The notes: a model not told the origin generated them from the letters alone. 64,000 nt of DNA from Minisyncoccota bacterium (GCA_041651055.1 JBAZJW010000001.1:306661-370660); one strand, 5' to 3'. Counted from the first letter of the stretch, positions 1-55,600 are shown. Program-made: numbers and translations.

Positions 1-3000
1 GAAATCTGAGATAGCACGACCGAGTGCTCGTCCTTCTCCTGTCATCTTCATTGCATATCCTGGCATTGTCTTTGATACCGTAAGGAAATCTCCACGCTTT
101 ACTTCGCCGTTTTCTGTTGTAACCTTCACAGGAATACGTCCAGAGAATGCAACCGGTACACCGTCACGTGTATCACCACCAAGTGTAATACCTGCCTTTG
201 TAGAAATAACTCCGATGGCTTCATAGTCTGTGAGCGCCTTACGTACACCTGAGATATCGTACATTTCGGTTGTCGTACTTGTGTTACTTATCTGACCCCA
301 TGCGACGGTCGATGTACCGAATGCCACCACAGTACCCGCATCCACCGCTTCGAGTGCTGGATAATTTTCTGCTAAGTCGGCAGGCGTACCGATAGTTGTA
401 CCACCATCGGTGAACACATCTCCATCTGAATCAATACGGAACTTCACGTTTGATGCACCTCCAACATCTGAAAGAAGTCTGAAGATATCTACGTTCGATG
501 TCGATGTCGCAGAGTATGCATCGAGAACAGAAAGTGGTGTCGCCATGTTGATACCTACACGTGGATACTGTACTGCGGCGTAGCCGTTTGATTCACCATA
601 TACCGTAAGAACACTGGTACCTGCGATTGCTGCTGAATAACTCTCTACGGTACCTGTCGCTGCATTCAATATTGGAAGATCGGTCCACTGTACTATACCA
701 GCATCAGTGTCGAATGAAAGGTTTCCAAGTTCGAGGTTCGAAATTGACGTGACTGATGTAGAAGCATTGTAGAAAAGTCCACCTGAACCGATATTTACGT
801 TACCAGCAAATGTCGATGTCGCTGTACTTGAAGCCGCAGTGAAGAGGTTCGCATATACTTCACCAGCCTGACCAGCGTATGTGGTGGTGCCGAAGAGAAG
901 TGCGCCGAGTTGATTCATCATCATGAGTGATGAGCCGGTCGATGATGCGATGTTGAATGGATTCGTTCCTCCGACACCTTGAACGAAGAGTGATGTCGTT
1001 GGGGTGGTGGTTCCGATACCAATATTTCCTGCGATAAGTGTACCCGTAATACTTCCCTGCGAACCATTTCCGAGTCCTAAGACCCCAGCGGAGATACGTG
1101 AAAAACCAGTATCGCTATTTTCAGGGTTTGTATCTGGACTCCATGACAACACACCAAGAGCCGCGACACCGTGAGATAAGGATGTTGTTTTTATCCAAGC
1201 ATTAGAAGCAGAGTTAAGAAATCGCAGAGAGTTTATCGAGGGTTGTATCGTACCACTTGCAGAAGCACCAGATATATCAATCTTAAGAGATCCACCGCTC
1301 CCAGAAGCAACTATGTCACCACCAACGGAAAGTTTAAAGCTCGGTGTCGATGACCCGATTCCCACATTTCCATTTCCCAAAATCGTCATTGCAGTATTGA
1401 ACGCATTTTGGAATGTGCCTGAGGTACTACTTGCGGCGGCTGTCTGGAATATGAATGCTCCACCGAGACCTGTGCCTGTTCCGGCTGATGCTTTGAAAGT
1501 CGTACTTGTACCTGCAGTGTTCGTTGTTCCTGCAACAACGGACTGCACACTAAATGTCTGTGCAACTGGTGAAGCTGCATCAGCACCTCCAAGCTGGAGA
1601 TTGGCGGCTGCTTTACGAGAAAGAAACAAGTCTGGAGTACTCACAGCATCTAGACCACTTGACCAACTATATGAATAGTTGCTTGGAACAGATATATTCG
1701 AATACTTCCAAACCAATAGTTTTCCCTTAACCCCAGCCCCGTCATCTCCAAAAAAGCCAGTATAAGCATTAGCAATTCCGGTTATGTAATGTGGGCCTCC
1801 AGAAATAATCAATGAACTTGGAGATGAAATACTTCCAGTAGGAACAGTCATAGCACCGTCCTTTCGTACACTGAACTTACTAACTCCACCAACCTGCAAA
1901 TCAACTAAATTAGATGCAGCCAAACTCGCTGTATCGGTAATATTCATCGTAAGACCAGACATTGTAGACCCTGACTGATTCCACGTCTGTGCGAGATTAA
2001 CCAATGAACTCGTCGCTGTGACCGTACCACCATTCACAGAGAGTGGAGATACTGGGCTTGTCGTACCGATACCAACATACCCACCAGCACTTGCGAGAAT
2101 AGTTTGACCTGTGACAGTGAGAGCTGTAGACGAAGCAAGAGCTAACGTTGCATCCCCTGTTACATTAAGTGTCCCTGTCGCGGTAAGATTGTGCGTTGAG
2201 AAATCTGTGACAAGTGTCATGAAGGTGCTCGACGCATACGCATTCGTCACGCCTGAACCCGCTACGATAGTACTCCACAGTGTTGATGTGCCCGTACTTA
2301 CAAGAGCCTGTCCTGATGTGCCTGTAGCATTCGTACTATCGCGGAACCAACCAGAGAGATTAAGATTTGTGGATGTTGAGTTTGTAAACAATGAAGAAGG
2401 TGCGTTGACGGTACCTGTAGCTGTCACATTCCCCGCGAAGTATGAATCTCCGTTTACAGCAAGCTTGGCAGTAAACGTAGTCGTGCCAAGTCCGAGATTT
2501 CCATTAATATCAAATCTTGCTTTTTCTATTCTATTAATACCGAAAAGAATATTATGATACGAAGCTATACCTGTGTCGTTTGCATTATATCCTTCCAATA
2601 CCACGTTCCCTGTCGAGTTACCTGTGAGAGCTTGGAATGTAATACCGTTACCTGTTCCACCCATAAGGCTTTCATTTGTAACTCTAAGAGCACCCGTTTG
2701 GGATGTTGATGGGTAAATATCTATTCCGTATTGATTATCTCTAATTTTTGAGTTACCTACCACGATGCTTGCCGTACCAGCGCCACCGATAGCAGCAGCT
2801 GAGGCATCTGACATAAGTAAAACTTTACCTGTTGTCGTTCCTGCACGAACAGTACCAAAAACATCAAGCGCGTATCCTGGTGTCGATGATCCGATTCCTA
2901 CATTTCCATTCGCAAGCACATTAAATATCGATGTTGATGTAGCAATACTAAAGAGGTTCGAGGTGCCTGTTGCTGTGGATGAAGAAACGGAAAGAAGGGA

Positions 3001-6000
3001 GAGTGGTGTGGTGGTGCCGATACCGACGTTGCCTCTTGTACCACCAAGAATAATATTCCCTGATATGCCTGTTCCGTACCCAAGACCACCATCTAAAGTA
3101 ATATTGCCTCCACTCGCAAGACCTGCTGATCCAGATGAACCATTACCACCAGTGAGTGTAAGGATACCTCCTGTGATATTTGTTACGGCGTCCGGGGAAG
3201 CGTTACCACCGTGAAGGGTGAGTGAGGTCACTGCGTCTTGTCCACTTCCTAAGTTAGCTCCACGAACAGTCAATTTTGCAGAAGGCCCGTCGGTATCATT
3301 TCCAGAAATCACAGCATTAGCATAATAAGCTCGTATTGGTTTATAGAACTTAATTTGATTATCACCTGAACCAAAATTAATAACATTCCCATCTGTATTT
3401 GTAATCAATAGCCCATTCGTAGAAGAATTAAGTGCTCCCGGAATTGTTGGTCGCCCATCTTTTCTTACACTAAACTTACTAATTCCGCCAACCTGCAAAT
3501 CAACTAAATTAGAGGCAGTTAAACTGGCAGTATCTGTAATATTCATCGTAAGACCAGAAAAGGTTGATCCTGACTGGTTCCACGTCTGCACTAAATTCAC
3601 CAATGAACTTGTCGCAGTAACGGTTCCACCGTTAATAGAAAGTGAAGACGCAGGACTCGTGGTACCAATACCAACGTATCCATTATCAAGAACCGTAAGT
3701 CCTGGGATATTTGTACTTCCTGTTGTCTGGAACGCAATACCCGTGCCAGTGCCTGCACCTTTAACACCAAGACGTGCATATGGGGTAGAGGTACCGACAC
3801 CGAGATTGCCCGTACTAGTCACACGCATCGACTCTCGTGCGGTATAACCAACTTGTGATCTAAAGACCATGTCGCCACCAGACCAATAGTTATCAAAAAA
3901 AGTAGTGCCATTTGGCGCATCATAATAAAACTTAAATCCTTCATTAAAAGCGCCTCCACTAAAACCGTTTGATGAAGTAATACCGATAGAAGCAATATCG
4001 TTATTACCAAGACCTTTAAGCACAAGGCTTGGCGCACTTGAAGTAATCTGAAGATCAGCCCCGGGTGCTGTTGTACCAATCCCCACTCTCCCTCCCGCTG
4101 TCGCAAGATACGTACCACCTGTGACAGTGAGTCCTGTTGAGCTTGCGGTAGCGAGTGTACTCTGACCATTTACGTTAAAAGTTCCTGTGAATATTCCATT
4201 TGTTCCTGTGAAGCCTGTTGACGAAAGGTTCGTTGTAGACGCATTTGTAATCGTTGCATTTGTAGAAAAGAGTGATGCGAGGGTAGCTCCTGTTGCAGAG
4301 AGGTTTGTGGTAGATGCATTACCTAACGTAGTCTGACCAGAGATATTGAGTGTCCCTGTCGCAGTGACGTTACCCGCGAAGTATGAGTTGCCATTAACTG
4401 CGAACATTGCTGCGGGAGTGGTGGTGCCGATACCGACATACCCAGAAGTACCATTAATACGCATCGCTTCAGTACCATCAGCTTTGTTTATCATTGTGTT
4501 ACCTGTTGTTCCTAGGAACGTAGTGTCTGGTAATCCAGGTTCGAGAATCACATTTCCACCATTATATGCAGAACCTGATCTTGCAAGGTTATCCCCTCCT
4601 TTGACCAGTACGTGTCCGTTCGATTTATTTGTATATCCTGTAACCAAAAGAGCAGGATTATCATACCCTGCGGAAATAGAGCTCCCAGCAAAACCCTTTA
4701 CCGTTGCTGTATTTAACCACATAAAAGGGTTTGCTCCTCCGGCTGAAAAACCAAGAGTTCCAGCGTATCCGAAAAGCAAACTAACACTATTCCCAAGAAT
4801 ACTATTTGCACCAATATTAAGATTTCCATCTAACTTGGTATCACCAACAACATGAAGCTTTGAACTTGGTGTCGATGTTCCTATCCCCACATTCCCTCCC
4901 GCGGTTGCAAGTGTCGTCGTGCCTGTTGTATTGAAAAGCGTAGCGTAGAGGTTTGTTGCAGTGAATCCGGTTGAAGATGCGTTCGAGAGCGTGGTTTGAC
5001 CAGCGATGTTAAACGTGCCTGTTGCTGTCACATTACCCGCGAAGTATGAGTCTCCATTTACCGCGAACTTAGTGGTAGGAGAACTAGTGCCAATACCTAC
5101 ATTTCCTCTTGTTGTCGCAAGGAGAACGTTTCCTGCAATACCTGCATTCACAGGAGCTCCACCATCTAGGTAAATATTTCCACCATTTCTTGCTGTAGCA
5201 CCGGCATCCGATGAAGCACCACCGATGAGAAGCATATCTCTACCTGCCGCTGAATATGTTCCGTATTCACCAATACTCGTCGGACGAATAGTAAATGTTC
5301 CTGCAGTACTTCCAGCGCTTGGTCCTCCAGATAAAATAGAAGATCCTCCATTATTTATTTGAACGACTCCACTGGTACTATTTGGTGCAATACTAATATC
5401 TGTACCACTTCCACCTCCAAAACTCATTGTTCCACGCAAATCTCCTGTCGTCTGGTAGTAATCCTTAATCGAATTTCCGTTAATAGTAAGAAAATGATTT
5501 GACGGAGCCCCACTAAATGTAGCAATTCCTGCAGAACTTACTTTGAACATGCTAGATCCACCACTGTTTACATCGAACAATGCTGAAGGTGTAGATGTTC
5601 CCACTCCCACATTTCCTCCCGCAGTTGCAAGTGTCGTTGTACCTGTTGTATTGAAAAGCGTAGCGTAGAGGTTTGTTGCAGTGAGTCCTGTCGTTGATGC
5701 ATTCGTCAAAGTTGCAGACGTCGCAGACAAAGTGCCGACTGTCGCAGACGTGGAATATAAGTTCGTAAGTGTTGCTCCTGTTGCGCTTAAGTTCGTAGTT
5801 GACGCATTCGTAATCGTTGCATTTGTAGAGAAGAGTGATGCGAGTGTCGCTCCTGTTGCAGAAAGGTTTGTTGTAGAAGCGTTCGCAAGTGTCGTCTGAC
5901 CTGTTACGTTAAGTGTGCCTGTCGCTGTTACATTTCCTGCGAAGTATGAGTTACCGTTGACTGCGAACATCGCAGCAGGAGTAGTGGTACCGATGCCGAC

Positions 6001-9000
6001 ATTGCCACTATTTATAGACATCGTATTTATTAAACCAGTTGCAGAACCAGTATAGAAATCCATTCTTGCTGGACCTCCATTACCAGCAATTGCATTACCG
6101 TTTTGAACAACATCAATGACAGCTTGGTTATATAATGCCCCCGCCGTATTTACTCCAGAAAAACCAATCTGCCCTAAACCCTCTCCGTTTAAAGTTGTTG
6201 CTAAAGTTCCACTTACGTCTGAATGAGATTTTCCGAGAGTGATTCCTCCAGCCCCTTGCCAATTAGAATATGTACTAGAATAAGATATTGCTCGTAGTTG
6301 TGCAGAACTACCAGTAACACTACCAGTACCAGCTACATCTAGCTTAACACCAGGATTCGTTGTCCCGATGCCGACATTGCCTGTAAAATAGCTTCCATCT
6401 TTGTCTATGTACAGTTTTTCGGCGGCAGTATCATAACCACCCCCTCGTAAACTGATCGAACCCGTACTATTGCTAGCCGAAGCTGCATTTGAAAATACAA
6501 CAATACCATTTGCCCCATCGGGACCAAACGCAGCCTTGCTTGCTAGAGAGGCGACACCGAATGATGACCCGTATGCTCTAAAAAAACCGCCAACGGAACC
6601 ACTATAAGCCCCTACCGTTGCAGAATTTGAATTACTTGTACTATTAACTCGAATTGTACTATTAATCCCTGAACCATCGCCAGTGACTTCCAGTTTACCG
6701 TTTACTGGGTTTGTCGTTCCGATACCAACATTACCGTTGGAAATTATTCTCATCGCTTCAACACCATTGTTTGGAAAGAATCCAATTGAGGCACTAGCAC
6801 CGGCTCTGAGTTCCATAAGACTAGCGCTCATTCCAATACCATAATTATTTACTGGATTCCCATCGTTATACATGGTCCATTTGAGATTGGCAGGGCTTCC
6901 TGGAGTGCTATTGCCGTATGTACCTCCAAACGATACATTTAAAGGAGAAGCTGTGCTCTGACTAACATTTTTTCCAAAAATTGTATCTCCATTCGCAAGT
7001 ACATTAAATATCGGAGAGGTTGTCGAGTTGAAAGAAATAAACGGTGAAGCAAGTGATGTCGATGACGCCATGACGGAGAGCATTGCTATTGGAGAAGTCG
7101 TCCCCACTCCCACATTTCCATTCGAAGCAATAGTCATACGCTCGACACTCGATGTTACGAAGCGTAGATAATCATCCACACCTGCGGTGATGTATGTCGT
7201 CTGCGCTGGATTGATCACACCACCTAGACCTTGCCACACAGCATTGTCCCCGTATCCTTCGAACTGATGCGTAGTGACGTTGTAACGAACCTGTCCCGTG
7301 CCGGCTAATGATGGACGCTGTACCGTTGTACCTACAGGAAGACGAAGTGCATCGGTACCATAAATATCTACGATAGACGCAGGTGTCGCAGTCCCAATAC
7401 CGAGACGTGTGTTTGTATTATCCCAGAAGAAGTTCGCATTATTTTGTGAAAGCTTACCTCCTGTGCTGATGAATGGAATAGAGCCAGAGGTGAGTGCTGA
7501 GAAGTATGAGTCACCAGAGGTAGTAACATTCGTAGTGGATGCGTTGGTGGTCGTAAGACCACCAACGAACGCATTTGTAAGTGTCGCACCTGTCGCACTC
7601 AAGTTCGTAGTAGACGCATTTGTAATCGTTGCATTTGTAGAGAAGAGTGATGCGAGAGTGGCACCTGTTGCAGAGAGGTTCGTAGTAGACGCATTCGTAA
7701 ATGTCACATTCGTTGCAGTAAGTCCTCCGAAGAATCCATTCGTGAAGTTGAGCCCTGAACCAGAGATGTTCGTAGTAGAAGCATTTGTTACAGTAAGTGC
7801 TGAGAGGAATGCGTTTGTTGCAAAGAGTCCTGAAGCAGAGAGGTTCGTGGTGGATGCATTTAGGATTGTAGCTGTACCTGTAGTGTTCGTATTTCCGAAT
7901 ACTGCGCCAGTTGCACTGATGTTCGTTGTCGATGCATTTCCAAGTGTTGTCTGACCCGTAACTGTTAGATTAGAAATCGTTGTCGTTGCTAAAGTTGAAG
8001 TTCCTGTTACAGCAAGTAGCGTTGTGGTAGCGTTCGTAAGTGTTGCGTTTGTAGAGAACAGGGATGTAAGCGTAGCTCCTGTGGCTGAGAGATTCGTAGT
8101 CGATGCATTTCCAAGTGTGGTCTGACCGGTTACGTTAAGTGTACCGTTCGAAGCAAGAGATGATGTCGCGGTGATATTTCCAGCAGTGAAAGAGTTGAAG
8201 GTTGCAGTGATTGCATTTAATATCGTTGCGAAGAAGTTTGATGATGTCGCATTCACAAGTGTCGAACTTGCTGATGTAAAGCCAGTCGCTGAGAGGTTGG
8301 TCGTACTAGCATTCGTAATCGTTGCAGTACCTGTCGTGTTTGTATTTGTAAACGTTGCCCCTGTTGCGGAGAGGTTGGTCGTCGATGCACTTGTGGTGAT
8401 GAGCGAAGTAATAGAACCGTTTGTAGAAGAAATGTTTGTCGATGTAGAATATGTTGCGAGCAAATTCGTCGTATAGAGTGATGTCGCAGTCAGTCCTGTT
8501 GTCGATGCATTCGTAAGATTCGCAGCAATTGCATACAGTGTGTTTGCAGTAAGTGCTGATGATGATGCAGTGGAAAGTGTTGTCTGCCCCGTAACACCAA
8601 GTGTCCCCGTGAAGTTCGCAGCACTTGAAATAGTCTGTCCATTGATAAGGCCAGTAGTGAGGGCTCCAGATCCGAGATCAACAGCACCTACGAATGTGTT
8701 TGTCGCACCAAAAGTAAGACGAGTAGTCCCTGTGGAATCTTTGATAGCATTGCCATTTAATTGAAGCTTGTCATCTACGACAAGCGTATCGGTATTGATA
8801 TTGAAAATCGCATTCTGAATACCGAGAGATGCCTGAATCGTTGTATCACCTTCTGCATCCACTCGGAAACGCTCGACACCATTCACACCGACACCGAGAA
8901 GTGTACTGTTTGTGGAGCCTGACCCTGGATTAATATAAAGACTTCCTTGTCCGAGACCTGTACCGAGTGGTGTGCCAGTGAGTGTAAGCATCCCCGCAAT

Positions 9001-12000
9001 ACTTGATGTTGCAGTACCAGCGACGTTAATTGAATTCGCGAAATTAACTTTGAAGTTATTGAACTCAAACTGTGAAAGTGTAGAATTCCATTTAAGAACG
9101 GCGTTTGGTGTAGCAATACCTCGAGAAAATTCTAACGTTGAATCCTGTGTATCATTGGTGAAATTACCTGTATTAATAATAAAGGTTGATGACGCTGTAC
9201 CACCTGCCACAAGGTTCGAAATTGTCGTCGTTGCAGCATAAATATTTCCAAAACGGAAAGTCGGAGATCCGAGGTCTGCACCAAGGTCTGTTGAAGGCAA
9301 AATTGTCGAAGCGATTTTACCATTAATAGTCACCGTGTCAGCTGAGCTATCCCCCAAGATTGTATTACCATTTGTTGTGAGATTTCCAGAGAAAAGGTTC
9401 GTACCTGTTGTGTTCGTTGAATTAAATGTTCCGACAATTTGCACGTCGCCTTCTGCATCGATACGAGCCTTTTCAGCACCGGCAACCGAAAGACCGAGGA
9501 GAACATTGTTTGTTCCTGCTGATGTTGGATTGACATACACGGTCCCCTGATTGATTCCTGTTCCGAATGGCACAGCAAGGAACTGAATCTGACCATTTGT
9601 GATAGATGATGTGAGCGATCCTGCAACATTAAGAGACCCCCCAATGTACACATTACCAGATGTCTCAATAACACCAGGAGCTGTCGTAGCCACCCCGACA
9701 CCGAAGCCTCCAGAAATATATCCGTTCGTTGCTTTTATATCACTTGAAAAAAGATTTGTCGTCGTTGCATTACCTCCAACAAATGTATTGGTGTAAAGAT
9801 TCGTCGATGTCGCATTCGTAATGATCGCATTTGTTGTCGTGCTGTTACCAACGATGAGGTCTGTAATACGTGCAAGTGTGGACCAGAGGTTTGAGAAGAA
9901 GCCGTTGGTGGATGTGGCACTAGTTGCGGTGAAGCTTGTGGCTGTTGTTGTGGCGAAAGTTGAGGTGCCGACGACAACCACTTGTCCATTTACGTTAAGT
10001 GTTCCGCCTCCGATAACAAGTTTGTCGATGTATGCGTTTGTCGTTGTGGCGTTCGTTGTAGAAGCGTTCACGGCAACGAGATTTGTGGTCGTACCATTTG
10101 CTACCGTAAGGTTTGTCGTTGAGGCAGTACTAGCAGAGAGATTCGTCACAGTTGTGGTTGCAAGCGTTGATGTTCCAACGACGACCACTTGTCCATTTAC
10201 GTTAAGTGTTCCGCCACCAATGACGAGGTTATTGATATATGCGTTTGTTGTCGTGCTGTTCGTTACGATTGCATTTGTTGTTGTACTGTTTGTTACTTCG
10301 AGACCAACAATTGCAGCGAGCGCTGAAAAGAAATTAGTTGTTGTTGCGTTTGTTCCAAAAAGATTCGAAGCAAACAGATTCGTCGATGTCGCATTCGTAA
10401 TGATCGCATTTGTTGTCGTACTGTTACCAACGATGAGGTCTGTGATACGTGCAAGTGTGGACCAGAGGTTTGAGAAGAAGCCGTTGGTGGATGTGGCATT
10501 GTTTGCAGTGAAGCTTGTGGCTGTTGTGGTGGCAAAAGTTGAGGTGCCGACTACGACAAGCTCACCATTTACCGTCACATTACCATTTGATGTAGATGAT
10601 CCAACGACAAGGTTCTGAACATATGCGTTCGTCGTTGTACTGTTCGTCACGATCGCATTTGTGGTCGTTGAATTTCCGATGATGAGGTCAGTTATATTTG
10701 CGAGCGTGGACCAAAGATTTGCAAAGAAACCATTGGTGGATGTCGCGTTTGTTGTAATACTATTTGTTGCAAAAAAATTAGTACTTGAGGCGTTCGTTGT
10801 GGATGCGTTTGTCGCTGCAAGATTTGTGGTTGTAGCACTTGTCGCAATAAGGTTTGTTGTTGTTGCAACGTCGGCAGTAAAGCTTGTCACCGTCGTAGTG
10901 GCAAGCGTTGAAGATCCATATACAACAAGCCCACCATTTACCGTCACATTACCGTTTGATGTCGATGAACCATTTGTAATATATGACCCAACGACAAGAT
11001 TTTGTATGAAGGCATTTGTTGCGGTTGCATTGTCCACCAAGAATCTTGTAGCCGAAACATCTGTGAGAGTAGAGCTTGCAGCGGAAAGATTGGTGATATA
11101 TGCATTTGTTGTCGTGCTGTTTCCAAATGTAGAAGAGCTTGCCGTGAGTGTGTTCGCCGAAACTCCTGCACTAAATGATGCTGACCCTGTAAAGACGTTA
11201 GAACCACTGAATGCCACACCATTTAAGGTTGCATTCGCAAGGTACATATTTGACGATGTGCCATAGTTGAAATTCGCATATTCGATTGTCGTATCGCGAA
11301 GGTATCCAATAGTTGAAACACCGATGAGGCTCTGTGCGAAATATGGCGTCGATGATTGATTAACTGTGGTAGGCGTGATGAATCCACCGAACGATGTTGG
11401 TAAAGAAGGATTTGAAGCACTCTGTCCATCACGACCATCTCGCCCGTTTGCTCCAGCAGGACCGGCAACCGGCACATACTCAGTAATATACTTCGTGAGA
11501 TATATAGGTGAAGCGGCGGGAGTTGTTTTTATGGTAGCTGATGTAACAGATGAAGAAGGAGTGCTTACAGTAGGTGTAGTGACGGCCGGAGCGACTGCGA
11601 CAGTGTTTGTTGTGTTCGTAGATGGAGAAAGCAGTCCTGATGCAAGAATGGTGTAATTACAGCGCTTCTGATCAAGAGTTGATGAAAGAGAGGAAAGTTT
11701 ACAGTAGAGAGAGAGTGAGAGTTGGTCAAGGAAAGGGAGGTTTTTCTTTTGCTGCGCAAGACCACTTGGAGTTTGTGAGGTAAAGGCACCAAGCACTACA
11801 CCTTGATTCTGCGCATGTGGCAGCAATTCAATTTGTGCAAGACGTGGAAGATGAGTGTTCACACTTGATGCATATGTTGCCACTGTTTCTTTACTAAAGA
11901 TTTCTCCATGAAGCGTACCTACGATGTACGAAGTGAGTGTATGCACAAATGGAAGAGCGAGAGGAGTTCCAGCAACACCAACCTCACGAGGAGTCGCACC

Positions 12001-12432
12001 TGAGATAACGAGCTTATTTTCTGAAATAGGAGAAAGGGTTATTGAGTTGAGTGCTTTCGTATAAGTCACCTCCATAGCCAAAACAATGTTTTGTAGAGAA
12101 GATGGTGTAAATGAAAGATTCGGTACGTTTATTTTTTGAATAGCCAGAGGTTCGCTGTAGGCAATCTTTGGGATCGTTGCGAGAGATTGTGAGGCAAGTA
12201 ATTTTGGAAGTGTGTGTGCAAAAGAAAATGAAGTGTGTGCAAGTTTCGAAACAGTAAACGGTCGAGAACGAAGTGTAAGGATAAGTGATGAAAGAGGTCT
12301 TGCTTGTGAAAATGTGTATTGTGTGTCCTTTGTGTCAGCTGCTTTTGCAGGAGAAAAAGAGACGAAGAAGAAAGCGAGAGAGAGTACTGCGAAGACAAGT
12401 TTTTGGAATGTGCGACTACTAAGATCTTGCAT
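1..12432 (-). CDS. Giant secreted repeat protein (tail-fibre-like, beta-helical adhesin-like). It is 5' complete and 3' truncated by the window edge, with at least 4,144 aa in the window.
   Basis: The minus-strand ATG at 12432 (the revcomp of cat 12430-12432) opens MQDLSSRTFQKLVFAVLSLAFFFVSFSPAKA/ADTKDT, a signal peptide. The frame was hand-translated at 12432, 11475, 8709, 4440 and 1371 (all codon tops are congruent to 0 mod 3) with no stops. The track lists no complete ORF starting at 12432, which implies there is no in-frame stop before position 1. Recurrent motifs include YVGIGTTTP (4440-4418) and GNVGIGSSTPSFKLSVGG (1371-1320). There are long T/N/S/A 9-residue periodic repeats and a collagen-like GPAGANGRDGRDGQ stretch (11475-11434). 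Confidence 0.8.
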   Translation of the reverse strand, partial: MQDLSSRTFQKLVFAVLSLAFFFVSFSPAKAADTKDTQYTFSQARPLSSLILTLRSRPFTVSKLAHTSFSFAHTLPKLLASQSLATIPKIAYSEPLAIQKINVPNLSFTPSSLQNIVLAMEVTYTKALNSITLSPISENKLVISGATPREVGVAGTPLALPFVHTLTSYIVGTLHGEIFSKETVATYASSVNTHLPRLAQIELLPHAQNQGVVLGAFTSQTPSGLAQQKKNLPFLDQLSLSLYCKLSSLSSTLDQKRCNYTILASGLLSPSTNTTNTVAVAPAVTTPTVSTPSSSVTSATIKTTPAASPIYLTKYITEYVPVAGPAGANGRDGRDGQSASNPSLPTSFGGFITPTTVNQSSTPYFAQSLIGVSTIGYLRDTTIEYANFNYGTSSNMYLANATLNGVAFSGSNVFTGSASFSAGVSANTLTASSSTFGNSTTTNAYITNLSAASSTLTDVSATRFLVDNATATNAFIQNLVVGSYITNGSSTSNGNVTVNGGLVVYGSSTLATTTVTSFTADVATTTNLIATSATTTNLAATNASTTNASSTNFFATNSITTNATSTNGFFANLWSTLANITDLIIGNSTTTNAIVTNSTTTNAYVQNLVVGSSTSNGNVTVNGELVVVGTSTFATTTATSFTANNATSTNGFFSNLWSTLARITDLIVGNSTTTNAIITNATSTNLFASNLFGTNATTTNFFSALAAIVGLEVTNSTTTNAIVTNSTTTNAYINNLVIGGGTLNVNGQVVVVGTSTLATTTVTNLSASTASTTNLTVANGTTTNLVAVNASTTNATTTNAYIDKLVIGGGTLNVNGQVVVVGTSTFATTTATSFTATSATSTNGFFSNLWSTLARITDLIVGNSTTTNAIITNATSTNLYTNTFVGGNATTTNLFSSDIKATNGYISGGFGVGVATTAPGVIETSGNVYIGGSLNVAGSLTSSITNGQIQFLAVPFGTGINQGTVYVNPTSAGTNNVLLGLSVAGAEKARIDAEGDVQIVGTFNSTNTTGTNLFSGNLTTNGNTILGDSSADTVTINGKIASTILPSTDLGADLGSPTFRFGNIYAATTTISNLVAGGTASSTFIINTGNFTNDTQDSTLEFSRGIATPNAVLKWNSTLSQFEFNNFKVNFANSINVAGTATSSIAGMLTLTGTPLGTGLGQGSLYINPGSGSTNSTLLGVGVNGVERFRVDAEGDTTIQASLGIQNAIFNINTDTLVVDDKLQLNGNAIKDSTGTTRLTFGATNTFVGAVDLGSGALTTGLINGQTISSAANFTGTLGVTGQTTLSTASSSALTANTLYAIAANLTNASTTGLTATSLYTTNLLATYSTSTNISSTNGSITSLITTSASTTNLSATGATFTNTNTTGTATITNASTTNLSATGFTSASSTLVNATSSNFFATILNAITATFNSFTAGNITATSSLASNGTLNVTGQTTLGNASTTNLSATGATLTSLFSTNATLTNATTTLLAVTGTSTLATTTISNLTVTGQTTLGNASTTNISATGAVFGNTNTTGTATILNASTTNLSASGLFATNAFLSALTVTNASTTNISGSGLNFTNGFFGGLTATNVTFTNASTTNLSATGATLASLFSTNATITNASTTNLSATGATLTNAFVGGLTTTNASTTNVTTSGDSYFSALTSGSIPFISTGGKLSQNNANFFWDNTNTRLGIGTATPASIVDIYGTDALRLPVGTTVQRPSLAGTGQVRYNVTTHQFEGYGDNAVWQGLGGVINPAQTTYITAGVDDYLRFVTSSVERMTIASNGNVGVGTTSPIAMLSVMASSTSLASPFISFNSTTSPIFNVLANGDTIFGKNVSQSTASPLNVSFGGTYGNSTPGSPANLKWTMYNDGNPVNNYGIGMSASLMELRAGASASIGFFPNNGVEAMRIISNGNVGIGTTNPVNGKLEVTGDGSGINSTIRVNSTSNSNSATVGAYSGSVGGFFRAYGSSFGVASLASKAAFGPDGANGIVVFSNAASASNSTGSISLRGGGYDTAAEKLYIDKDGSYFTGNVGIGTTNPGVKLDVAGTGSVTGSSAQLRAISYSSTYSNWQGAGGITLGKSHSDVSGTLATTLNGEGLGQIGFSGVNTAGALYNQAVIDVVQNGNAIAGNGGPARMDFYTGSATGLINTMSINSGNVGIGTTTPAAMFAVNGNSYFAGNVTATGTLNVTGQTTLANASTTNLSATGATLASLFSTNATITNASTTNLSATGATLTNLYSTSATVGTLSATSATLTNASTTGLTATNLYATLFNTTGTTTLATAGGNVGVGTSTPSALFDVNSGGSSMFKVSSAGIATFSGAPSNHFLTINGNSIKDYYQTTGDLRGTMSFGGGSGTDISIAPNSTSGVVQINNGGSSILSGGPSAGSTAGTFTIRPTSIGEYGTYSAAGRDMLLIGGASSDAGATARNGGNIYLDGGAPVNAGIAGNVLLATTRGNVGIGTSSPTTKFAVNGDSYFAGNVTATGTFNIAGQTTLSNASSTGFTATNLYATLFNTTGTTTLATAGGNVGIGTSTPSSKLHVVGDTKLDGNLNIGANSILGNSVSLLFGYAGTLGFSAGGANPFMWLNTATVKGFAGSSISAGYDNPALLVTGYTNKSNGHVLVKGGDNLARSGSAYNGGNVILEPGLPDTTFLGTTGNTMINKADGTEAMRINGTSGYVGIGTTTPAAMFAVNGNSYFAGNVTATGTLNISGQTTLGNASTTNLSATGATLASLFSTNATITNASTTNLSSTGFTGTNGIFTGTFNVNGQSTLATASSTGLTVTGGTYLATAGGRVGIGTTAPGADLQITSSAPSLVLKGLGNNDIASIGITSSNGFSGGAFNEGFKFYYDAPNGTTFFDNYWSGGDMVFRSQVGYTARESMRVTSTGNLGVGTSTPYARLGVKGAGTGTGIAFQTTGSTNIPGLTVLDNGYVGIGTTSPASSLSINGGTVTATSSLVNLVQTWNQSGSTFSGLTMNITDTASLTASNLVDLQVGGISKFSVRKDGRPTIPGALNSSTNGLLITNTDGNVINFGSGDNQIKFYKPIRAYYANAVISGNDTDGPSAKLTVRGANLGSGQDAVTSLTLHGGNASPDAVTNITGGILTLTGGNGSSGSAGLASGGNITLDGGLGYGTGISGNIILGGTRGNVGIGTTTPLSLLSVSSSTATGTSNLFSIATSTSIFNVLANGNVGIGSSTPGYALDVFGTVRAGTTTGKVLLMSDASAAAIGGAGTASIVVGNSKIRDNQYGIDIYPSTSQTGALRVTNESLMGGTGNGITFQALTGNSTGNVVLEGYNANDTGIASYHNILFGINRIEKARFDINGNLGLGTTTFTAKLAVNGDSYFAGNVTATGTVNAPSSLFTNSTSTNLNLSGWFRDSTNATGTSGQALVSTGTSTLWSTIVAGSGVTNAYASSTFMTLVTDFSTHNLTATGTLNVTGDATLALASSTALTVTGQTILASAGGYVGIGTTSPVSPLSVNGGTVTATSSLVNLAQTWNQSGSTMSGLTMNITDTASLAASNLVDLQVGGVSKFSVRKDGAMTVPTGSISSPSSLIISGGPHYITGIANAYTGFFGDDGAGVKGKLLVWKYSNISVPSNYSYSWSSGLDAVSTPDLFLSRKAAANLQLGGADAASPVAQTFSVQSVVAGTTNTAGTSTTFKASAGTGTGLGGAFIFQTAAASSTSGTFQNAFNTAMTILGNGNVGIGSSTPSFKLSVGGDIVASGSGGSLKIDISGASASGTIQPSINSLRFLNSASNAWIKTTSLSHGVAALGVLSWSPDTNPENSDTGFSRISAGVLGLGNGSQGSITGTLIAGNIGIGTTTPTTSLFVQGVGGTNPFNIASSTGSSLMMMNQLGALLFGTTTYAGQAGEVYANLFTAASSTATSTFAGNVNIGSGGLFYNASTSVTSISNLELGNLSFDTDAGIVQWTDLPILNAATGTVESYSAAIAGTSVLTVYGESNGYAAVQYPRVGINMATPLSVLDAYSATSTSNVDIFRLLSDVGGASNVKFRIDSDGDVFTDGGTTIGTPADLAENYPALEAVDAGTVVAFGTSTVAWGQISNTSTTTEMYDISGVRKALTDYEAIGVISTKAGITLGGDTRDGVPVAFSGRIPVKVTTENGEVKRGDFLTVSKTMPGYAMKMTGEGRALGRAISDF
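9797..10590. repeat. Near-identical ~200-bp direct repeats inside the giant gene, with units starting at 9797 and 10377 (period about 579 bp). A ~50-bp sub-repeat is duplicated at 9965 and 10172, and a diverged third copy lies near 10661.
   Basis: Direct comparison of 9797-10010 with 10377-10590 shows only a few mismatches. Antisense ORF 9821..10618 contains MIAFVVVLLPTMRSVIRASVDQRFEKKPLVDVAL twice and VPTTTTCPFTLSVPPP twice. Confidence 0.8.
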
Positions 12433-54974: not shown

Positions 54975-55052
54975 AGTAATTTATTACTTTTAATAAGTAC
55001 TAACAGTATATCACTATAATAACCCTAGGCTCGCCTCGTACAAAAAACCAGA

Positions 55053-55203
55053 AGTACTTCTGGTTTTTTGTATTTTGCTTGGTCGTAGAATATTGCTTCA
55101 TAGAAATGTTGCTACATTTCTATGTCTTCGAAGCCAAGCTTCTCGACCTGCAAAAATACAGTCGTAAAGTACTTCTATTTTTTGTATTTTGCTTGGTCGT
55201 GAT
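55053..55203. repeat. Direct repeats of about 33 bp (gtacttct..ttttttgtattttgcttggtcgt) at 55053-55088 and 55169-55203. Each forms a hairpin, and the first includes the perfect palindrome acaaaaaaccagaagt/acttctggttttttgt.
   Basis: The two copies were compared directly. Further small palindromes lie at 55090-55150. Confidence 0.7.
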
Positions 55204-55245
55204 TACACGACACCCAGCAAAAATATAGTCATGAATACTCTCCTT

Positions 55246-55267
55246 ATTTTTGCGGGCCCACGAAGAA
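55246..55267 (-). repeat. Duplicated tRNA-Trp 3' end. It is a 22-bp direct repeat of 55439-55460, comprising the last 15 nt of the tRNA plus 7 nt of trailer. It is a candidate att-like scar.
   Basis: atttttgcgggcccacgaagaa is identical at both sites, and the two copies are 193 bp apart. Confidence 0.8.
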
Positions 55268-55398
55268 GTTCGGTCACCTCGTCTCGTTTTATGAGTACAT
55301 AAAACAGGAGACTCCTCGAAGTCACGTTTGACACTCGTCTACTGACTCGCCCTATTCGATTCTCCACGCATGTGACACAGGTCACATGCTGTGGGTCC

Positions 55399-55446
55399 GC
55401 AAAAATATAAAAACAGTATTCGAAAATACTGTTTTTATATTTTTGC
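55399..55446 (-). terminator. Perfect 22-bp-stem hairpin immediately 3' of tRNA-Trp.
   Basis: The hairpin is gcaaaaatataaaaacagtatt-cgaa-aatactgtttttatatttttgc. Confidence 0.6.
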
Positions 55447-55516
55447 GGGCCCACGAAGAATCGAACTTCGACCAACGGATTTGGAGGCCGTTGTTCTACC
55501 ATTAAACTATAGGCCC
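55446..55516 (-). tRNA. tRNA-Trp (anticodon CCA), 71 nt, with no encoded CCA.
   Basis: The revcomp is GGGCCTATAGTTTAATGGTAGAACAACGGCCTCCAAATCCGTTGGTCGAAGTTCGATTCTTCGTGGGCCCG. It has a 7-bp acceptor stem, the anticodon loop CUCCAAA (U33, CCA, A37), and a T-arm CGAAG-TTCGATT-CTTCG. Confidence 0.85.
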
Positions 55517-55539: not shown

Positions 55540-55570
55540 TTTTTAATTTCTAATTTCAATTGATAAATTA
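55540..55570 (-). promoter_or_regulatory. Variant of the shared A/T-rich element (ttttaatttctaatttcaattgataaatta) 24-54 bp upstream of tRNA-Trp. A TAGAAT -10-like box lies 8-13 nt upstream of the tRNA 5' end.
   Basis: It resembles 25574-25593 and 29294-29313. Confidence 0.4.
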
Positions 55571-55600
55571 AAAACCAGACGATTGTCTGGTTTTTAATTT
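55571..55600. terminator. Bidirectional terminator hairpin 3' of rpmG.
   Basis: The hairpin is aaaaaccagac-gatt-gtctggttttt. Confidence 0.6.

Follow-up and report, generated by a model that had tools for sequence, protein, structure and literature searches.

A complete tRNA gene followed by a displaced partial copy of its own 3′ end is usually taken as proof of an integrase. The attachment (att) site of mycobacteriophage Ms6 lies in the T-loop of a tRNA-Ala gene (PMC1762012), and the ssrA islands of Dehalococcoides stand in tandem, separated by repeated 3′-end fragments (PMC3146451). The tRNA-Trp(CCA) gene analyzed here, located in a 64,000-nucleotide stretch of a Minisyncoccota bacterium (GCA_041651055.1 JBAZJW010000001.1:306661-370660; the whole stretch is referred to as the window, and positions are counted from its first letter), has the same layout, as its 3′ end is repeated within a 470-bp gap downstream of the gene. 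The likeness to tyrosine-integrase att sites in tRNA genes extends to the start of the displaced copy in the T-loop, to empty sites and tandem units, and to an adjoining slot with variable cargo that includes a restriction-modification system. In contrast to such sites, no integrase, coding payload, matching viral or plasmid attP, or repeat bounding the gene cargo was found, and the payload is a conserved strand-specific structure with an antisense copy of the same tRNA segment. The feature may well be a recombination scar at a tRNA-anchored hot spot and not the remnant of an integrase element; the partial tRNA repeat would then derive from a structured module together with exchange of tRNA-anchored flanks, with no visible integrase.

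In Escherichia coli, 3′ETS-leuZ and the leuX terminator represent 3′ external transcribed spacers (3′ETS) of tRNAs and terminator hairpins extending into the 3′ end of a tRNA. The tRNA-Trp element resembles these in being structured sequence immediately downstream of a tRNA and in its orientation, with a hairpin that reaches the 3′ strand of the acceptor; it differs by a far longer stem (30 bp), by additional hairpins with sense and antisense copies of the T-arm, by its tandem arrangement, and in being known from sequence alone. With REP/BIME, RPE, and Correia-type repeats or miniature inverted-repeat transposable elements, it shares small noncoding hairpin units that occur in tandem downstream of genes and show mosaic recombination between units, and 55245-55407 can be viewed as framed by a terminal inverted repeat of 17 nt. 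In contrast to such extragenic repeats, copies were found only at the 3′ flank of tRNA-Trp, in one orientation, and the terminal repeats copy the adjacent tRNA. The 17-nt inverted repeat (55245-55261/55391-55407) is a copy of the tRNA end, and the 23-nt direct repeat is much longer than a typical target duplication. Integron attC sites are composed of an R box, a spacer, an L box, and a variable terminal structure, and tandem inversion duplications present a sequence in direct, inverted, direct arrangement. Template switching during replication creates and repairs hairpins (PMC8794818); the tRNA-Trp locus is similar to such hairpins with respect to a reverse-complement copy beside its source, near-perfect Watson–Crick stems, and the direct-inverted-direct order, whereas its core is not tRNA-derived and is shared across genomes, and its G-U pairs are strand-biased.

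Copies of the tRNA-Trp 3′ end

The assignment of a tRNA-Trp gene to the minus strand in the first-pass annotation of the window was reproduced by ARAGORN and Rfam (Table 1). The 22-mer described there as a direct repeat (55246-55267 and 55439-55460) is real and exact, and it is 1 nt longer: TATTTTTGCGGGCCCACGAAGAA is identical over 23 nt (55245-55267/55438-55460) and starts at ~U59, the end of the T-loop. No third direct copy with ≤3 mismatches was present in the 64-kb window, whether at tRNA-unrelated sites or elsewhere, and 0 matches were obtained in 100 shuffles. Beside the two direct copies, an inverted third copy (55391-55407) had been overlooked; the tRNA end is arranged in the order direct, inverted, direct within 215 bp. 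The inverted copy has two alternative partners, the tRNA end, with which it forms hairpin H1, or the distal repeat, with which it forms a 17-bp stem closing a 163-nt domain (z = −5.8). A second public assembly contig (L002) contains the identical sequence with both repeat copies. The distal copy was also considered as a degenerate second tRNA, and this was rejected: beyond the 15 nt, the local alignment of the tRNA with the gap did not exceed that of shuffles, and ARAGORN identified a single tRNA.

A hairpin with a perfect 22-bp stem had been reported in this stretch; it exists, with a stem of 30 bp, a single mismatch, and a 4-nt loop (H1, arms 55391-55420 and 55425-55454). Its right-hand arm on the plus strand consists of the tRNA 3′ end plus trailer. 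In H1, the final 10 nt of the tRNA gene region (GTGGGCCCGC), together with 20 nt of A-rich trailer, are base-paired to a reverse-complement copy of themselves, and the inner portion of the hairpin looks like a terminator. The complete 521-nt stretch from the tRNA to the next gene folds far better than shuffles (z = −12.5).

Table 1. Coordinates of the tRNA-Trp gene, the copies of its 3′ end, and the structures of the 470-bp gap
Feature	Position	Strand	Support
tRNA-Trp(CCA), canonical; CCA end not encoded	55446-55516	−	ARAGORN 55445-55516 (−); Rfam RF00005, 64.8 bits
Proximal copy of the 23-nt direct repeat: tRNA positions ~59-73 (15 nt) plus 8 nt of trailer	55438-55460	−	
H1: 30-bp stem, 4-nt loop, 29 Watson–Crick pairs and 1 mismatch	55391-55454	−	−40.1 kcal/mol
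Inverted copy of tRNA end and trailer (sense strand TATTTTTGCGGACCCAC)	55391-55407	−	
H2: perfect 9-bp hairpin, loop CTGT, preceded by a single A (55390)	55368-55389	−	
T-loop/T-stem of the tRNA in antisense (sense GTGGAGAATCGAA); forms the 5′ strand of helix P1	55355-55367	−	Read from sequences
Module body: H2, antisense T segment, enlarged internal loop with extra hairpin, P3 (55277-55319), GTGACC (55272-55277)	55268-55390	−	Alignment A1; blastn to L093, L091, L090
Distal copy of the 23-nt direct repeat: putative 3′ end of the inserted module, joined to the match with the former tRNA end and trailer	55245-55267	−	
U2, putative older trailer layer: hairpin GCAAAAATA...TATTTTTGC and hairpin GTCGTG/CACGAC	55195-55253	−	L102 trailer match, z = 15.6
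Second exact 23-nt direct repeat pair (55064-55086 and 55178-55200), 114 bp start to start	55064-55200	−	
U4: perfect 34-nt palindromic terminator	55039-55072	−	z = 11.2 to L097 hairpin

A structured module family at tRNA-Trp

The structures that follow the tRNA end in the window belong to a family. A metagenome scan with the 3′ half of tRNA-Trp returned 14 loci, and loci were sampled via tRNA-Trp or the nearby GlyRS gene. Six further metagenome contigs of Paceibacterota (L088, L090, L091, L093, L099, and L100) contain members, always 3′ of tRNA-Trp and in the orientation of the tRNA, with one to three module copies per locus (three in tandem in L100, two in L090 and two in L093). They follow the layout H1, a single A, H2, GTGAGGAATCGAATAGGGGTCG, a variable hairpin, and (T)GTGACCGATTCCTC, with sequences that differ between members. 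In the family, H1 comprises 62-67 nt with 28-32 Watson–Crick pairs and always contains the tRNA segment GTGGGCCCGC, whereas its inner sequence varies (hairpins of this type with differing inner sequence were listed for L088, L090, L091, L093, L097, L099, L110, and L103). Hairpins of the H1 type into which the tRNA end is incorporated occur in 9 of ~21 distinct flanks, in L097, L103, and L110 without the rest of the module. H2 has a 9-bp stem and the loop CTGY in every member; its six stem sequences are all fully paired. The two segments GCGGGCCCAC...GAGGAATCGAA, interrupted by H2, are the reverse complement of the 21 nt at the tRNA 3′ end, and CGATTCCTC(GTGG) repeats the tRNA directly from T-loop position C56 on; both T-arm copies pair as helix P1. 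The conserved segments not derived from the tRNA are AATAGGGGTCG, GTGAC, and the H2 loop CTGY. No local source was found for H2, AATAGGGGTCG, P3, and GTGAC, which are common to several genomes.

The RNAalifold consensus consists of H2, P1, a one-sided 7-nt loop AAUAGGG, P2 with an invariant G-U pair, and the variable tip P3. Consensus pairing was obtained in 93.3% of the cells versus 79.3% in shuffles and ~40% with slid partners. In a covariation set of only five, related sequences, 14 of 36 pairs had changed on both sides, and none of 500 shuffles reached the observed values; a covariance-model alignment with filters off (A4) was contaminated by antisense matches to H2 plus H1 and was excluded from the pair counts. 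Individual copies fold with z values of −5.2 to −7.7. The sense strand was more stable than the antisense strand in all of the 11 copies compared, which are not independent of each other, by 2.8-15.7 kcal/mol, and contained 35 versus 11 G-U pairs. Thus, the stability of the sense strand and its excess of G-U pairs point to selection on the transcript of the tRNA strand, or on that single DNA strand.

The covariance model R1 of the module matched only 3′ flanks of tRNA-Trp, on the tRNA strand, in a total of ~370 kb (the window and ~300 kb of related loci); in the window it identified 55304-55390 on the minus strand (34.8 bits, E = 6e-5), with no dispersed module copies elsewhere in the 64 kb. 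In a search against Rfam, nothing except the tRNA passed the threshold, and the sub-threshold matches were to generic hairpin models. The family is a conserved, strand-specific structured module bound to tRNA-Trp that is previously undescribed and absent from Rfam.

In the window copy, P1 is GGAGAA/UUCUUC, the loop contains an extra hairpin, and the 3′ end continues through the full tRNA end and trailer, which explains the unusual length of the 23-nt repeat. A change in the antisense T segment compensates for the genome's own T-stem variant (C-G to U-A), indicating that the tRNA changed together with both its antisense and its sense copy. P3, as read by eye from sequences and blastn, is identical at 51 of 52 nt between the window and L093a, at 36 of 36 nt between L090a and L093b, and at ~94% between L090b and L100c, whereas the housekeeping genes of the genomes that share P3 are only 66-78% identical; moreover, H2 variants reassort among P3 variants. 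Near-identical P3 tips in diverged genomes and reassorting H2 stems indicate that the modules are either under tRNA-like constraint or exchanged between genomes.

Comparison of the 470-bp gap with relatives

Both occupied and empty tRNA-Trp sites exist among relatives. The 193 bp separating the repeats are missing from L102 and L097, and a three-way alignment gave one clean 193-nt gap in both. In L102, the trailer directly after the tRNA aligns with window 55178-55267, that is, with the distal copy and the sequence beyond it (80% over 92 nt), while its neighboring genes are only 67-71% identical to those of the window. The same pattern would result if the DNA separating the repeats had been deleted in the relatives. 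With the arguments for and against about balanced, we read the distal tRNA fragment as the right-hand junction of a 193-bp block that would have been added between tRNA-Trp and its former trailer, insertion being the presumed direction.

The 470-bp gap as a whole looks like a stack of layers, composed of U1 (the 193 bp), U2 (L102-like), U3 (the 114-bp unit between), and U4 (L097-like). The 33-bp direct repeats previously noted in this part (55053-55088/55169-55203) are exact for 23 nt and imperfect beyond. The stretch of this second repeat pair contains a perfect 11-bp hairpin (55099-55124), and the sequence between its two copies (55064-55200) has no counterpart in L102. The U4 palindrome is similar to the hairpin abutting tRNA-Trp in L097 (unit 55025-55078 compared) and to the rpmG terminator at 55565-55600. 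Look-ups of closer strains via L33 and DUF5667 yielded identical sequence only, and Logan contigs break in the palindrome at 55039-55072: in the assembly of SRR8542065, the breaks on both sides fall within these 34 nt, as L002 ends at 55043 and L115 starts at ~55068.

Gene order and flank turnover

The window belongs to a 559-kb contig of a Candidatus Paceibacterota bacterium. On the minus strand, the order of genes in the window is esterase, GlyRS, rpmG, tRNA-Trp, the 470-bp gap, a secreted DUF5667 protein, GAPDH, and RpiB. The order GlyRS, rpmG, tRNA-Trp, variable slot, GAPDH, RpiB recurs in L083, L085, L097, and L102, the flanking genes of which have 67-78% DNA identity to those of the window. 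The missing secE-nusG pair, which had been regarded as consistent with rearrangement at this site, is a clade feature because relatives of this divergence have the same order in common.

The slot between tRNA-Trp and GAPDH contains unrelated genes in at least eight relatives. DUF5667 is found in the window and L097, an HD-domain gene (29-610 nt after tRNA-Trp) followed by DUF5667 in L096, an inverted ABC-transporter operon in L090 and L100, unrelated membrane proteins in L083 and L085, and nothing in L102. In L101, the contig of which is cut before GAPDH, the slot holds a type I restriction-modification system at 138-2507 nt after tRNA-Trp, with HsdR (EcoEI_R_C domain) and then HsdM. At the level of gene content, the slot is a hot spot, and the interval from tRNA-Trp to GAPDH provides a concrete marker for gene turnover in Paceibacterota. 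In L005, tRNA-Trp (3549-3622) is inverted relative to GlyRS and rpmG and is followed by the gene for a 180-aa secreted protein; the GlyRS is 71% identical.

At the strain level, L108 (7304) and L110 (5132) are 99.77% identical over 5.1 kb, L104 (6225) and L105 (4280) are 100% identical over 4.3 kb, and both pairs diverge within ≤3 nt of the tRNA-Trp end. Identical tRNA-Trp flanks were also found on backbones that are only ~75% identical (L107 3200-3291 belongs to the loci with these patterns), and several contigs stop 20-107 nt past the tRNA. These breakpoints are suggestive of recombination anchored on the invariant tRNA.

Search for an integrase

Neither the 170-bp interval, which lacks an open reading frame (ORF), nor the 10 window ORFs that could not be assigned from their N-terminal sequence and were analyzed with Pfam contained an integrase; likewise, none was seen beside tRNA-Trp in ~20 relatives, the ORF listings of which were inspected by eye only. 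Neither the tRNA core nor the module core had an exact match in IMG/VR that could serve as attP, and blastn gave no match to the window module in the phage collection or to the L090a-based module in the plasmid collection. Around the gene cargo of relatives, no distal tRNA repeat was detected within 10 kb. A literature search on tRNA islands in the Candidate Phyla Radiation (CPR) turned up generic papers only.

The first-pass reading of the repeats as attL and attR retains support from the absence of the 193 bp in L102 and L097, from the course of the repeat from the T-loop past the 3′ end, and from the variable slot, possibly also from the strain-level breakpoints; an excised or decayed element with its own integrase is not supported, and the 170-bp interval itself belongs to a conserved structured family. 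The proposed scar and recombination hot spot both stand, whereas the remnant of an integrase element does not. In its full form, that reading would have a tyrosine-integrase element in the T-loop to 3′ end of tRNA-Trp that lost its interior, or an att-only miniature moved in trans, with the conserved module representing joined attP arms. Typical attP sites are roughly comparable in size to the 170-bp payload plus core. The intact tRNA with a correctly oriented partial 3′ copy downstream, starting in the T-loop and reaching 8 nt past the gene, corresponds to the geometry of T-loop att sites such as that of Ms6 (PMC1762012), relatives have empty sites, and tandem arrays parted by repeated 3′-end fragments have a precedent in the ssrA islands (PMC3146451). 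We nevertheless consider this origin improbable, given the negative searches above, including the gene-carrying flanks without a distal repeat; furthermore, the 95-nt tandem units of L093 and L090 are too short to circularize, and neither a strand-biased G-U pattern nor a built-in antisense tRNA copy is expected in attP arms.

Discussion

We hold it to be an even call that the duplicated tRNA end is a junction left by the placement of a trailer module, and that this module persists as RNA. A new module would be placed ahead of the older trailer and leave the direct repeat behind. Recombination would be anchored by the conserved tRNA on one side and, by a presumed route, by the tRNA-like end of the module or the start of the A-rich trailer on the other; since the terminal part of each module repeats the tRNA directly from its T-loop on, recombination can stack modules before older trailers. 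The module would then be retained as RNA in the 3′ trailer of tRNA-Trp, where H1 would act as terminator and possibly also as a double-strand processing stem, and P1 would prevent invasion of the tRNA by the antisense T segment. As judged from the sequences, the module most likely acts as RNA in this trailer and probably serves as a terminator or a processing structure. If so, it would represent a new tRNA-linked RNA family in the CPR and the unusual case of a tRNA trailed by its own antisense and a decoy copy.

Several points weigh against this scenario. A function at the RNA level is deduced solely from the strand-biased structure, and the H1 and H2 stems, being almost purely Watson–Crick, suit a templated origin at the DNA level as well as selection on RNA. 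Precise repeat-to-repeat deletions in relatives would equally explain the empty sites. If the block had been imported from a different genome, exact identity over 23 nt, 8 of which are trailer specific to this genome, would not be predicted; such identity better suits duplication in place or selection to maintain pairing. The copy in the window is degenerate, with 34.8 bits compared with 83-103 bits for the four top-scoring copies elsewhere, disturbed P1 and P2 helices, and z = −2.2. The sampling through tRNA-Trp and GlyRS biases the finding that modules occur at tRNA-Trp only. Finally, the strain-level breakpoints derive from metagenome contigs, and the reciprocal pattern in sample ERZ27314315 is also expected from a misjoin at the shared tRNA.

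A local duplication could have arisen by a replication accident, in which the polymerase switched templates at the terminator palindrome and copied the 3′ end of the tRNA first in reverse and then in the forward direction, giving a neutral and decaying product. The order direct, inverted, direct within 215 bp is that of tandem inversion duplications, the inverted and direct copies bear the genome's own trailer and T-stem variant, and the near-perfect Watson–Crick stems are expected of templated copying. The creation and repair of hairpins by template switching is documented (PMC8794818). Such an accident would not account for conserved non-tRNA sequence (AATAGGGGTCG, GTGAC, CTGY) common to genomes with 66-78% identical housekeeping genes, for P3 variants that are ~94-100% identical between these genomes (read by eye), or for invariant G-U pairs and the strand bias of the fold; a one-off neutral event would not yield a family. 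The probability of this explanation is accordingly rated as low.

Another use of the sense and antisense copies of the 3′ third of tRNA-Trp would be a cis-encoded anti-tRNA/tRNA-mimic switch in the CPR that passes from genome to genome by recombining into the tRNA gene via its tRNA-like end. Such a switch would govern termination, processing, or availability of tRNA-Trp; we regard it as unlikely. A more explicit three-segment version appears somewhat less likely still. In this version, the antisense copy (segment 2) would have two competing partners: the 3′ end of the tRNA (segment 1), with which it makes H1 and so sequesters the acceptor and T arm, or the sense copy located downstream (segment 3). 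The switch would control termination, processing by RNase III, P, or Z, or the yield of tRNA-Trp; alternatively, a released RNA would bind tRNA-Trp or a T-arm-binding protein. Both pairings exist in the energy calculation, with −40.1 kcal/mol for H1 and −67.3 kcal/mol for the 163-nt domain closed by the 17-bp stem of segments 2 and 3, and the unconstrained minimum pairs the 5′ acceptor strand of the tRNA with the distal copy (−121.1 versus −104.7 kcal/mol with the cloverleaf enforced). Selection for pairing would also explain the joint C-G to U-A change and the retained 23-nt identity, and the structure is conserved on the sense strand only. On the other hand, the downstream sense copy of other members comprises the T-loop/T-stem only (9-13 nt), so that the full switch of the window is not conserved, and the downstream genes differ or are convergent, hence there is no obvious regulated target. 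Moreover, the argument is built on computed energies, whereas a tRNA folds co-transcriptionally and with a tertiary structure outside the energy calculation.

A site folded as a single strand in the manner of attC is very improbable; it would serve a hypothetical recombinase by which units are inserted at the T-loop of the tRNA, each boundary between them bearing the core again. P1, the one-sided loop, P2, and a tip of very variable length resemble the R box, spacer, L box, and variable terminal structure of attC, folding is strand-specific, and the core CGATTCCTC recurs at the unit boundaries of the arrays. However, no recombinase was found, the units are without genes and without an attC sequence signature, and the argument is one of resemblance only.

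Additional observations

The first-pass annotation described the gap as free of ORFs, and no credible one was identified. A public gene call for a 99-aa product (55203-55502, minus strand) overlaps the tRNA and the repeats, has no Pfam match, and is almost certainly spurious. Past the distal repeat, at 55209-55236 on the minus strand, AAGGAG is followed after 8 nt by ATG and a 9-codon ORF (MTIFLLGVV) located in the loop and 3′ arm of the U2 hairpin. L102 has GTG CGA at this start, so the ATG is not kept, and the ORF is probably due to chance. The gap was also considered as a decayed gene: tblastn with 65 proteins from the flanks of relatives gave a best E value of 0.03, which is not significant for 65 queries, and this origin was rejected.

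In some relatives, ~150 nt that resemble the L1 stalk of 23S rRNA (GTAGGATAGGTGGGAGGCTTTGAAG...GGAGCCAACGTTGAAATACCAGCCCTC) are located between the rpmG terminator and tRNA-Trp (L083 5650-5800, L085 5850-5990, also L086 and L087, and partially L095); the element is not present at this place in the window. The clade's own 23S rRNA has a far more divergent L1 stalk (L004 10320-10400), and no Rfam match to the element was obtained at E ≤ 0.1. By its sequence, the element may be an L1-binding mimic. A relationship of the interval between the tRNA-Trp repeats to this upstream element of L083 and L085 was rejected, as the similarity did not exceed that of shuffles.

In L004, a 23S rRNA gene (7148-10803) follows GlyRS; the Rfam large subunit rRNA match spans 3656 nt for 2599 model positions, indicating insertions of ~1 kb. 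L083, the closest relative, contains a gene with a 23S_rRNA_IVP/bAvd domain between GAPDH and RpiB (7837-8211) that is absent from the window; these domains are related to the accessory protein of diversity-generating retroelements. At the other end of the window, positions 1-12432 of the minus strand are occupied by a single ORF of >4144 aa that runs off the window start; with its signal-like N-terminus, it probably encodes a giant surface protein.

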